A stretch of DNA of 23,837 bases from a virus (IMGVR_UViG_2534681835_000037:1-23837); one strand, 5' to 3'; shown: positions 5,827 to 7,343, counted from the stretch's first letter. Numbers and translations are program-made. Notes: generated by a model not told the origin, from the letters alone.

Positions 5827-7212
5827 GACCTTTTCCACCATATAAAGGAACAATAAATTCTTTTCTGATAGAGATTTAAATAAAAATACATTATTTTACA
5901 AAAAATAATATCCATTACAAAAACATCCGATTTTTTTATATTCCCGCTCATCCTGCTAATTTGTATTACAAAAAAATGAAACAACTTGAACCAAAGTGAT
6001 ACAAAATTAGAAAAGAAAACCCCAGGAAGACAAAGAAGACGATCTTTTTCAATGAGTTACACTGATTTATTGACTATGATTTTTAGCAAAACAATCGAAA
6101 GCAATGTGTACCGAGAAGGTTAAAAGATGGAATGGATAGTTATTGACACAGTGATATGCCCATCAAGCGGAATAACGTTTTCAACTGTATGGTGTAAAAT
6201 AAAGTTGATAATCTGGTATCAGTCAGATGTGTTCCTGCCACCCGGAAGTATTCTCACACCTGTTAACTCAGGTGTGATTATGGATAATAAGCTGCTTCCA
6301 TTAACCATTTACAACGTGACACCATTTAACAGAAAATTCTGGTTCCTTATCAGAAATCAAAAAGAGTGCCCCGGGAATTCAGTTAAAACAAAAATAAAAT
6401 GCCATAATAGTATGTGTGTACTGATGATATGCCCGTATGGATTATATAAGTAACAACATATGAATACATAACAGATAAACTATTGACCTTGAGGCTCATC
6501 CATATAAAGAAGAGCTCTCCGAAGAGGTGTGTATTTGCATGCACATTCCTTTTTTGCTCTATGTCATGACCTCCGGCGACTCTATCCCGGCGCCAGCAAA
6601 CCCGCATCATTCTCGTTTCCGGTGTCTCTAAAACCACAGCACACCTGCTCACTGCGCTACATATCAGCAACAATTTTATACCCGAACATTATCATTCAAC
6701 AGCATGGTTCACAACAACATCATAACCCAGGAAACGAGAATCAGATCAAAAAAACAGAAATTTTACATGAAAAATACTGTTTATTAATATTGATAGCGTC
6801 GTACCACAAAATACGATGAATTATCCCTGAACTTAACATTAATGCCAGTATGTATTGCCCGCTGGTATCAGCGGGCGCTTTAAGAGATCGTATTCATGAC
6901 TACCTGAGAAAAAGCTATTTTACTATTGTCAGTTTTTATTGCAGCCTTATCTGTCTACTTGCTTCACAGCCTGAACTGACCATATCTTTATCCATCCTTC
7001 CCGTCATCATGCGTGGCGTTACCCACTTGTCAGCAGGTAAGAAATGAAGGACTGCGGCGGCGGTTTCTGTCATATCTTGCTGTTTTAGCATGTCTTTTCC
7101 CTTCTGGTTAACATGACATACCAATAACTCTTGTCTAAAAAGCCAGCAAGATAAAAAGCCAGTATTCACGACCACCAGCGTGTTTACTGTACTGCACAAG
7201 GTTTACAGGTAC

Positions 7213-7234
7213 AAAAAAACCGCTCAGCGGCGGG
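7213..7234 (-). terminator. Weak intrinsic terminator on the minus strand (short GC hairpin plus T7)
   Basis: Minus strand reads CCGCTGAGCGG followed by TTTTTTT (plus-strand A-run 7213-7219, hairpin 7220-7230). The stem is only 4-5 bp, so this is tentative. Confidence 0.35.
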
Positions 7235-7271
7235 TTTAAGTTGTGTGGCGAAGTAACCACTCTTAACACGA

Positions 7272-7277
7272 TATAAT
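7272..7277 (+). promoter_or_regulatory. Candidate -10 element (TATAAT) for the DUF262-HEPN operon
   Basis: Perfect TATAAT 66 nt upstream of ATG 7344; no convincing -35 at 16-18 bp spacing. Confidence 0.3.
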
Positions 7278-7343
7278 ACTTTTTGCGTACGCGTTATAGT
7301 TTTCTTACAATCTATTTCCAACTCCAATTAAAGGAACAGTGAT

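Follow-up and report, generated by a model that had tools for sequence, protein, structure and literature searches.

An intact IraM-family gene antisense to the late operon of a defective lambdoid prophage

RpoS levels shape stress tolerance, persistence, and virulence in pathogenic E. coli. RssB is bound by two related anti-adaptor proteins, IraM and IraL, each of which stabilizes sigma-S (RpoS), and at least 95% nucleotide identity to K-12 iraM has been used as the criterion that separates iraM from iraL (PMC4045071). [quoted passage not shown] Stx phages provide another route to the same regulator by making the sRNA StxS, which raises RpoS, from their late leader (PMC7547250). In addition, some STEC strains show unexplained high levels of RpoS in log phase without carrying iraL (PMC4045071).

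The DNA analyzed here is a stretch of 23,837 nucleotides from a virus (IMGVR_UViG_2534681835_000037:1-23837, hereafter the window), which spans the late regulatory and lysis genes of a lambdoid prophage, the minus strand being the late strand. Over positions 1-16343, it shares 99.86% identity with a prophage of E. coli O111:H8 strain 8E, in which the integrase directly adjoins a truncated terminase gene and which must therefore be defective. Our focus is the interval 5854-7343 between a nanS-p-like gene (ATG at 5826, minus strand) and a DUF262 gene (ATG at 7344). Upstream on the late strand lies the gene for the Q antiterminator (10634-10266, minus) with a candidate late promoter just past its stop codon, i.e., 3 kb from the interval, and the first gene after Q encodes a C5 cytosine methyltransferase (10202-9162, minus). 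Past the interval, the late strand continues with the nanS-p-like esterase gene (ATG at 5826), DUF1378, DUF826, holin, and lysozyme, so that Q upstream and the nanS-p/DUF1378/DUF826/holin/lysozyme series downstream share one strand as in the late leader of Stx phages.

Some neighboring features of the window are worth recording in their own right. The DUF262/GmrSD_N gene on the plus strand matches NsnA of PADLOC (E 5.6e-46) as well as PD-T4-2_A (E 4e-27) and is paired with a HEPN_MAE_28990 gene (7344-9193, plus); the pair is convergent with the C5 cytosine methyltransferase gene across an overlap of 32 bp (window 7344-10202) and looks like a defense cassette inserted into the late leader. Compared to strain 8E, the window shows seven single-base deletions (1911, 2192, 3239, 3874, 4340, 4679, and 5899), six of which fall into homopolymer runs. 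Those at 4340 and 4679 cut the nanS-p ORF into three pieces, though they are probably assembly errors and not real pseudogenization. Near genes of Rha-family regulators, Rfam matches to C4 antisense RNA (75 bits) and isrK (62 bits) are adjacent to each other at 15468-15653 on the minus strand.

A sequence-only reading had described the interval as AT-rich, gene-poor DNA at the position where Stx phages carry stx, with low-complexity, AT-driven translations and two short ORFs preceded by ribosome-binding sites. Its AT-richness is borne out by a GC content of 37.5% compared to 46.6% for the whole window, with only 27.5% in the first 273 bp (5854-6126) and the minimum of the entire 23.8 kb in a 400-nt segment starting at 5801 (30.3%; mean 46.5%, sd 6.3). 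The low-GC block extends to ca. 10.2 kb (38.5%), and the interval is therefore part of a 4.5-kb cargo island. Intact coding sequence makes up about 22% of 5854-7343, which makes gene-poor a fair description, but the interval does hold an intact gene of the IraM family. Both short ORFs, 6280-6453 (plus strand, 57 aa, Cys-rich) and 6936-7091 (minus strand, 51 aa), do exist. However, position 6280 is merely an internal methionine codon (residue 52) of a 108-aa ORF at 6127-6453 (plus strand, antisense to the phage late operon) that has a Shine-Dalgarno sequence of its own, and the 57-aa ORF is the C-terminal half of this longer one, whose homology to the family begins at residue 1. Low complexity does not apply to its translation, and where only short ORFs, degraded morons, or sRNAs had been envisaged, homology searches thus identified a known and intact gene.

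The 108-aa protein belongs to the IraM family (IraM/IraL/RssC) of RssB anti-adaptors. It matches the NCBIfam model NF007393 over residues 1-107 with 144.2 bits (curated cut-off of 121), the crystallized IraM (PDB 8TWD_A) with E 2e-29 in phmmer, and phrog_4407 of PHROGs with E 3e-55, and RefSeq already annotates the product of 6127-6453 as IraM (WP_001443281.1). No Pfam match was obtained for the ORF at E<=0.01, while stored annotation places the family under the Pfam entry PF11183 (PmrD); our assignment is based on NCBIfam, PDB, and fold instead of Pfam. Comparing the gene to its clade relatives gave dN/dS values of 0.15-0.23 (dS 0.48-0.85), which means that the full-length ORF is under purifying selection.

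An AlphaFold2 model of the protein is confident for residues 1-79 (pLDDT 73-92) and shows an antiparallel beta-barrel with a flanking hairpin and one helix, i.e., a PmrD-like fold. Its best PDB match in Foldseek is 8twd_A (TM 0.90, rmsd 1.2 Å) with PmrD coming next, which agrees with the fold relationship to PmrD that had been reported together with the IraM-RssB structure (PMC10844676). Among the 15 IraM residues listed there as contacting RssB (PMC10844676), ten are identical in the window protein (I4, I6, W22, K26, I42, F18, W30, I61, Y62, and P66). The other five differ conservatively and match the family-majority residue (T13S, C14S, L75I, H63N, and I64V), and all three clusters of RssB-contact residues are kept. 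The shared fold and the PF11183 annotation could alternatively indicate that the protein is a PmrD-like connector for some other response regulator, e.g., PmrA or a phage-relevant regulator, and homologues outside Escherichia do adjoin two-component genes such as phoPQ in Citrobacter. However, the protein is 54-62% identical to three RssB-directed homologues compared to ca. 20% for PmrD, and it retains the residues that contact RssB, so that we regard a target other than RssB as quite improbable.

Beyond the modeled core, C81, C92, C97, C102, and P103-Y104-G105 are invariant in 22 of 22 aligned family members (window 6367-6441, residues 81-105). This four-cysteine tail had been removed from the crystallized IraM construct and was called less conserved there (PMC10844676). 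AlphaFold2 gives it a pLDDT below 50 in the window protein, and it may form a zinc or redox site.

With 54% amino-acid identity to K-12 IraM, 60% to IraL, and 62% (62-63%) to the copy found in Stx2c and Stx2a phages, the protein falls into a small clade of its own whose members are 77-84% identical to it. The gene is far from the 95% nucleotide identity expected of a K-12 iraM orthologue (about 69% over 214 bp, with 54% at the amino-acid level). An assignment to iraL, whose locus (L009) we recognized because the 5'-RACE sequence in the literature (PMC4045071) matches it exactly, was rejected as well (73% nucleotide and 60% amino-acid identity). The window clade is therefore best described as what it is, an uncharacterized branch of a known and already annotated family. 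Its allele is present in about 40 of 5426 complete E. coli genomes (at least 80% nucleotide identity over the full length), mainly O111, O121, O103, and related STEC/EPEC, while 4726 of the 5426 carry some family member at 68-74% identity. Among 50,697 phage records, the clade is absent at a threshold of at least 80% identity; the type with 62% identity occurs in 45 phage records, nearly all of them Stx2 phages, and a few of these copies are annotated as iraM. Beyond Escherichia, family genes are chromosomal and their surroundings are not those of a phage: in Citrobacter (L016, 6001-6330) between a histidine-phosphatase gene and lpxR at ca. 2 kb from phoP-phoQ, and in Enterobacter (L024) next to glpM and the gene of an OmpR-type response regulator.

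The gene is preceded by a very AT-rich intergenic region (5827-6126) from which nanS-p (minus) and the IraM-family gene (plus) diverge, and homology among members of the window clade covers ca. 5971-5979 to 6527. A block at 6039-6061 on the plus strand, ACGATCTTTTTCAATGAGTTACA, lies directly upstream of the predicted -10 hexamer and is conserved among five aligned clade members whose identity elsewhere is just 77-78%, which makes it a candidate regulator site. The predicted -10 hexamer itself (TATGAT, 6075-6080, plus) follows a TATnnT pattern that is kept across clades in all eight aligned family loci. The iraL locus contains a perfect copy of the transcript start sequence mapped by 5'-RACE (PMC4045071), whose +1 corresponds in the alignment to ca. 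6092 of the window, so transcription of the IraM-family gene would start near 6088-6092. A Shine-Dalgarno sequence (GAAGG, 6115-6119, plus) is located 7 nt before the ATG at 6127, and its AAGG is invariant in 8/8 aligned loci.

No usable -35 element was found at 16-18 nt from the TATGAT hexamer, and a sigma-70 scan yielded no promoter with a good -35 for the gene, so its promoter may be weak or need an activator. In a search for PhoP sites, 5854-6126 contains no PhoP box with up to two mismatches, matches with three mismatches occur at chance density and off the -35 position, and the gene thus does not show a PhoP-dependent promoter. Nor does the upstream DNA align with its counterpart at K-12 iraM, and given both observations the signal of K-12 IraM, Mg2+ starvation, should not be assumed. 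K-12 iraM is reportedly silenced by H-NS, as the title of a 2012 study by Battesti indicates, and the very AT-rich DNA upstream of the window gene may be silenced in the same way. At the other end of the transcript, RNAfold predicts a hairpin followed by a U-run at 6521-6556 (plus) as a candidate intrinsic terminator, though a weak one given a z-score of only -1.35 and its absence from the calls of a terminator scan.

The placement of the gene is conserved, too. In the Stx2c phage LC727876, the late strand runs from Q over a 75-aa ORF, an N6-methyltransferase gene, tRNA-Met(cat), tRNA-Arg(tct), stx2cA, and stx2cB to an antisense iraM-like gene and nanS-p. The same logic holds for all ten Escherichia prophage loci that we examined, where the family gene lies antisense between a block of Q/methylase/tRNA/(stx) and the nanS-p/holin cassette, head-to-head with nanS-p or the lysis cassette and with the methylase and/or tRNAs on its opposite side. 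This conserved placement and orientation confirms that the interval occupies the stx-equivalent position, as the sequence-only reading had proposed, and, more exactly, the slot is bounded by the methylase on one side and by the 3' end of the IraM-family gene on the other.

In the window, this slot is filled by a clade-specific segment (6528-6731) where relatives have tRNAs and Stx phages have tRNAs together with stx; the equivalent segment of one related locus (L007), for example, comprises 966 bp with tRNA-Thr/Arg/Gly. The filler is found in E. coli genomes only alongside this iraM allele and lacks conservation even between close relatives within the clade, and a distant blastn search of 6454-6997 against the 50,697 phage records returned no match. 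The view that the region lacks stx-like ORFs and tRNAs proved correct as well: the slot holds neither tRNAs nor stxAB. ARAGORN detected no tRNA in the whole window, and Rfam gave nothing in 5700-7500 even at E<=1 and nothing in the interval when the whole window was searched at the gathering threshold. Using Stx2cA, Stx2cB, and N6-methyltransferase from an Stx2c phage as tblastn queries and five tRNA clusters of related prophages in blastn-short, we obtained only chance-level matches to the window (best E 0.29-0.65), which means that there is no evidence of a degraded stx or tRNA. The slot hence looks empty rather than degraded, and nothing shows that stx had ever been present here. Four other ORFs, 6529-6819 (plus), 6383-6673 (minus), 5986-6123 (plus), and 6850-7047 (plus), have no match in Pfam, NCBIfam, or PHROGs and were rejected as spurious. 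As a separate observation, two related prophages each have in their tRNA slot, beside tRNA-Met(cat), an ARAGORN call of a tRNA with an 8-nt anticodon loop (anticodon 'tttt'; L014 5191-5268 and L015 4858-4935).

Next to the empty slot comes what is left of the N6-methyltransferase locus, its conserved 3' flank (6732-6997), with 77-86% identity to the DNA beside the methylase stop codon in three relatives (L007, L008, and L011), while the gene itself is deleted here. Just 3' of the methyltransferase stop, a GC hairpin at 6857-6876 (GCCCGCTG-GTAT-CAGCGGGC, about -17 to -18 kcal/mol) does not vary, flanks included, among three loci whose identity elsewhere is 77-83%; possibly, it acts as a terminator that shields the methylase from transcription coming from the iraM side. 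The deletion junction is marked by a 12-bp microhomology, TTC(C/T)CGTCATCA, at 6998-7009 and becomes apparent by comparison with O111:H8 strain 1056-1 (L002), relative to which the window lacks 1315 bp (window 6642-7009 corresponds to L002 6852-7219 and window 6998-7296 to L002 8535-8833). A second indel separates the same two genomes (window 6642-6648 versus L002 6795-6852), where an additional 57 bases in strain 1056-1, among them a run of ten cytosines, are flanked by the 7-bp repeat CACCTGC.

The larger deletion took the N6-methyltransferase gene together with 37 codons at the 3' end of a conserved phage gene that encodes 67 aa, and it thereby created the second ORF that had been proposed as a small protein (6936-7091, minus). 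This 51-aa chimera joins the first 30 codons of the 67-aa phrog_331 gene to 21 junction residues. It matches the phrog_331 profile only at positions 35-64, compared to 35-98 for the intact copy of strain 1056-1, and is thus not a full-length member of this family of 67-75 aa. It did inherit the start codon and ribosome-binding site of the intact gene, and RefSeq lists it as a hypothetical protein, but the final 37 residues of the 67-aa protein are gone, the 21 residues at the end of the chimera stem from a deletion fusion, and the configuration occurs in just 1 of 5426 genomes. A functional small protein therefore seems extremely improbable to us, and the ORF is probably a non-functional remnant.

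The segment 6998-7296 is common to many lambdoid phages (mEp460, Ayreon, cdtI, and Stx2c phages) at 97-99% identity, and it carries an intrinsic terminator of the late strand (7212-7231, minus; GCCGCTGAGCGGT followed by seven T) that is annotated as a terminator in phage Ayreon. Homology to two related loci (L002 and L006) stops at 7296-7315, where other plus-strand genes come next in these relatives. In the window, a variable plus-strand cargo cassette begins at this point with the leader (7297-7343, plus) of the DUF262 gene starting at 7344 (NsnA/PD-T4-2_A-like).

Given the two deletions of 1315 bp and 57 bp, the defective state of the prophage, the 51-aa stump, and the low coding density, one might view the whole interval, including the 108-aa ORF, as non-functional DNA decaying after loss of stx and tRNAs. 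To us, this has only a very small probability, because the IraM-family ORF is full length, with dN/dS of 0.15-0.23 and a conserved Shine-Dalgarno sequence and -10 hexamer, and because no remnant of stx, methylase, or tRNAs is detectable. Alternatively, the real function might reside in a non-coding element somewhere in 6454-7343, i.e., an sRNA or cis-regulatory element such as an StxS-like short transcript. Stx phages do make an RpoS-activating sRNA from their late leader (PMC7547250), and the invariant hairpin at 6857-6876 and the late-strand terminator at 7212-7231 would be compatible with such an element. However, the sRNA that had been envisaged for this region found no backing in Rfam (no match at E<=1), fold z-scores are unremarkable, 6528-6731 is not conserved among close relatives, and the candidate late promoter sits 3 kb away beside Q, which leaves this option rather little probability.

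Building on the family membership, fold, conservation, and synteny described above, we consider it likely that the interval is the moron (cargo) section within the late-operon leader of a defective prophage, in which an IraM-family protein binds RssB and raises RpoS while the rest is recombination debris. Judging by homology, the 108-aa protein would bind RssB, an adaptor that resembles response regulators, at the receiver domain, the linker, and the C-terminal domain; with RssB bound in this way, sigma-S would not be delivered to ClpXP and RpoS would go up in the lysogen. The gene would be served by a promoter and ribosome-binding site of its own that can be aligned to the mapped iraL promoter, and its antisense position relative to the Q-dependent late transcript suggests that it would be expressed in the repressed prophage, with convergent Q-dependent late transcription opposing its expression after induction. 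RssB binding, RpoS stabilization, promoter use, and lysogeny-specific expression of the window gene are here proposed by analogy with its characterized relatives. The remainder of the interval would be modular phage recombination debris composed of the empty slot, the methyltransferase flank, the 51-aa stump, the terminator, and the leader of the defense-like cassette.

A bolder version of this proposal, which we put forward as doubtful, is that IraM-family genes are a permanent module for lysogenic conversion in lambdoid late leaders that is physically tied to the tRNA/stx slot and stabilizes RpoS specifically in lysogeny, being switched off at Q-dependent late transcription. In addition to IraM and IraL, the window clade would then make up a third class in terms of function, with a regulator site of its own (6039-6061) and the four-cysteine tail as a metal or redox sensor.

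Under this bolder version, STEC prophages would raise RpoS by two independent routes, StxS and the IraM family, from one stretch of 2-3 kb. The window clade with its O111, O121, and O103 STEC/EPEC hosts and the stx2-adjacent copy of Stx2c/Stx2a phages are candidate causes of high log-phase RpoS. The stx-adjacent slot is no empty filler but regularly carries a moron that would target a host regulator. More generally, ORFs in AT-rich cargo DNA should be extended to the upstream start and checked for homology before such DNA is called gene-poor.

Among described systems, K-12 IraM (YcgW; PDB 8TWD) shares with the window protein the NF007393 family, the fold of beta-barrel, hairpin, and helix, and the C-terminal CP..C..C..CPYG tail. 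However, its gene has an upstream region that does not align with that of the window gene, and it is located beside e14 next to ycgX-bluR and not in a late leader between Q and nanS-p. The homologous iraL of UPEC CFT073 is closer in its setting, since its locus (L009) likewise belongs to a lambdoid prophage and runs antisense, with Q/tRNAs on one side and holin on the other. Yet IraL belongs to a separate clade, has 111 aa and a KQQSP end, and its gene differs from the window clade by 2-3 nt in the spacing from TTACA to the -10 and by not having the conserved upstream block. Stx2c and Stx2a phages (2851, 1717, Stx2a_WGPS, and others) carry an iraM-like gene that matches in place and orientation, with stx2B and nanS-p as its immediate neighbors, but there it is adjoined by the methylase, tRNAs, and stx. 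PmrD (PDB 4HN7) has the same fold (Foldseek probability 1.0, TM 0.75), and both PmrD and the IraM family are small proteins that bind the receiver domain of a response regulator, though PmrD is only ca. 20% identical, targets PmrA, and has no four-cysteine tail. No StxS-like Rfam match is present in the window, and the likeness to StxS is one of function: as a late-leader product that is expressed in lysogeny and raises RpoS, StxS would be a functional analogue of the proposed window protein. The two differ in that StxS is an RNA acting on rpoS translation, whereas the protein of the window gene would act on RpoS proteolysis, a plausible protein route to RpoS from the neighborhood of StxS.
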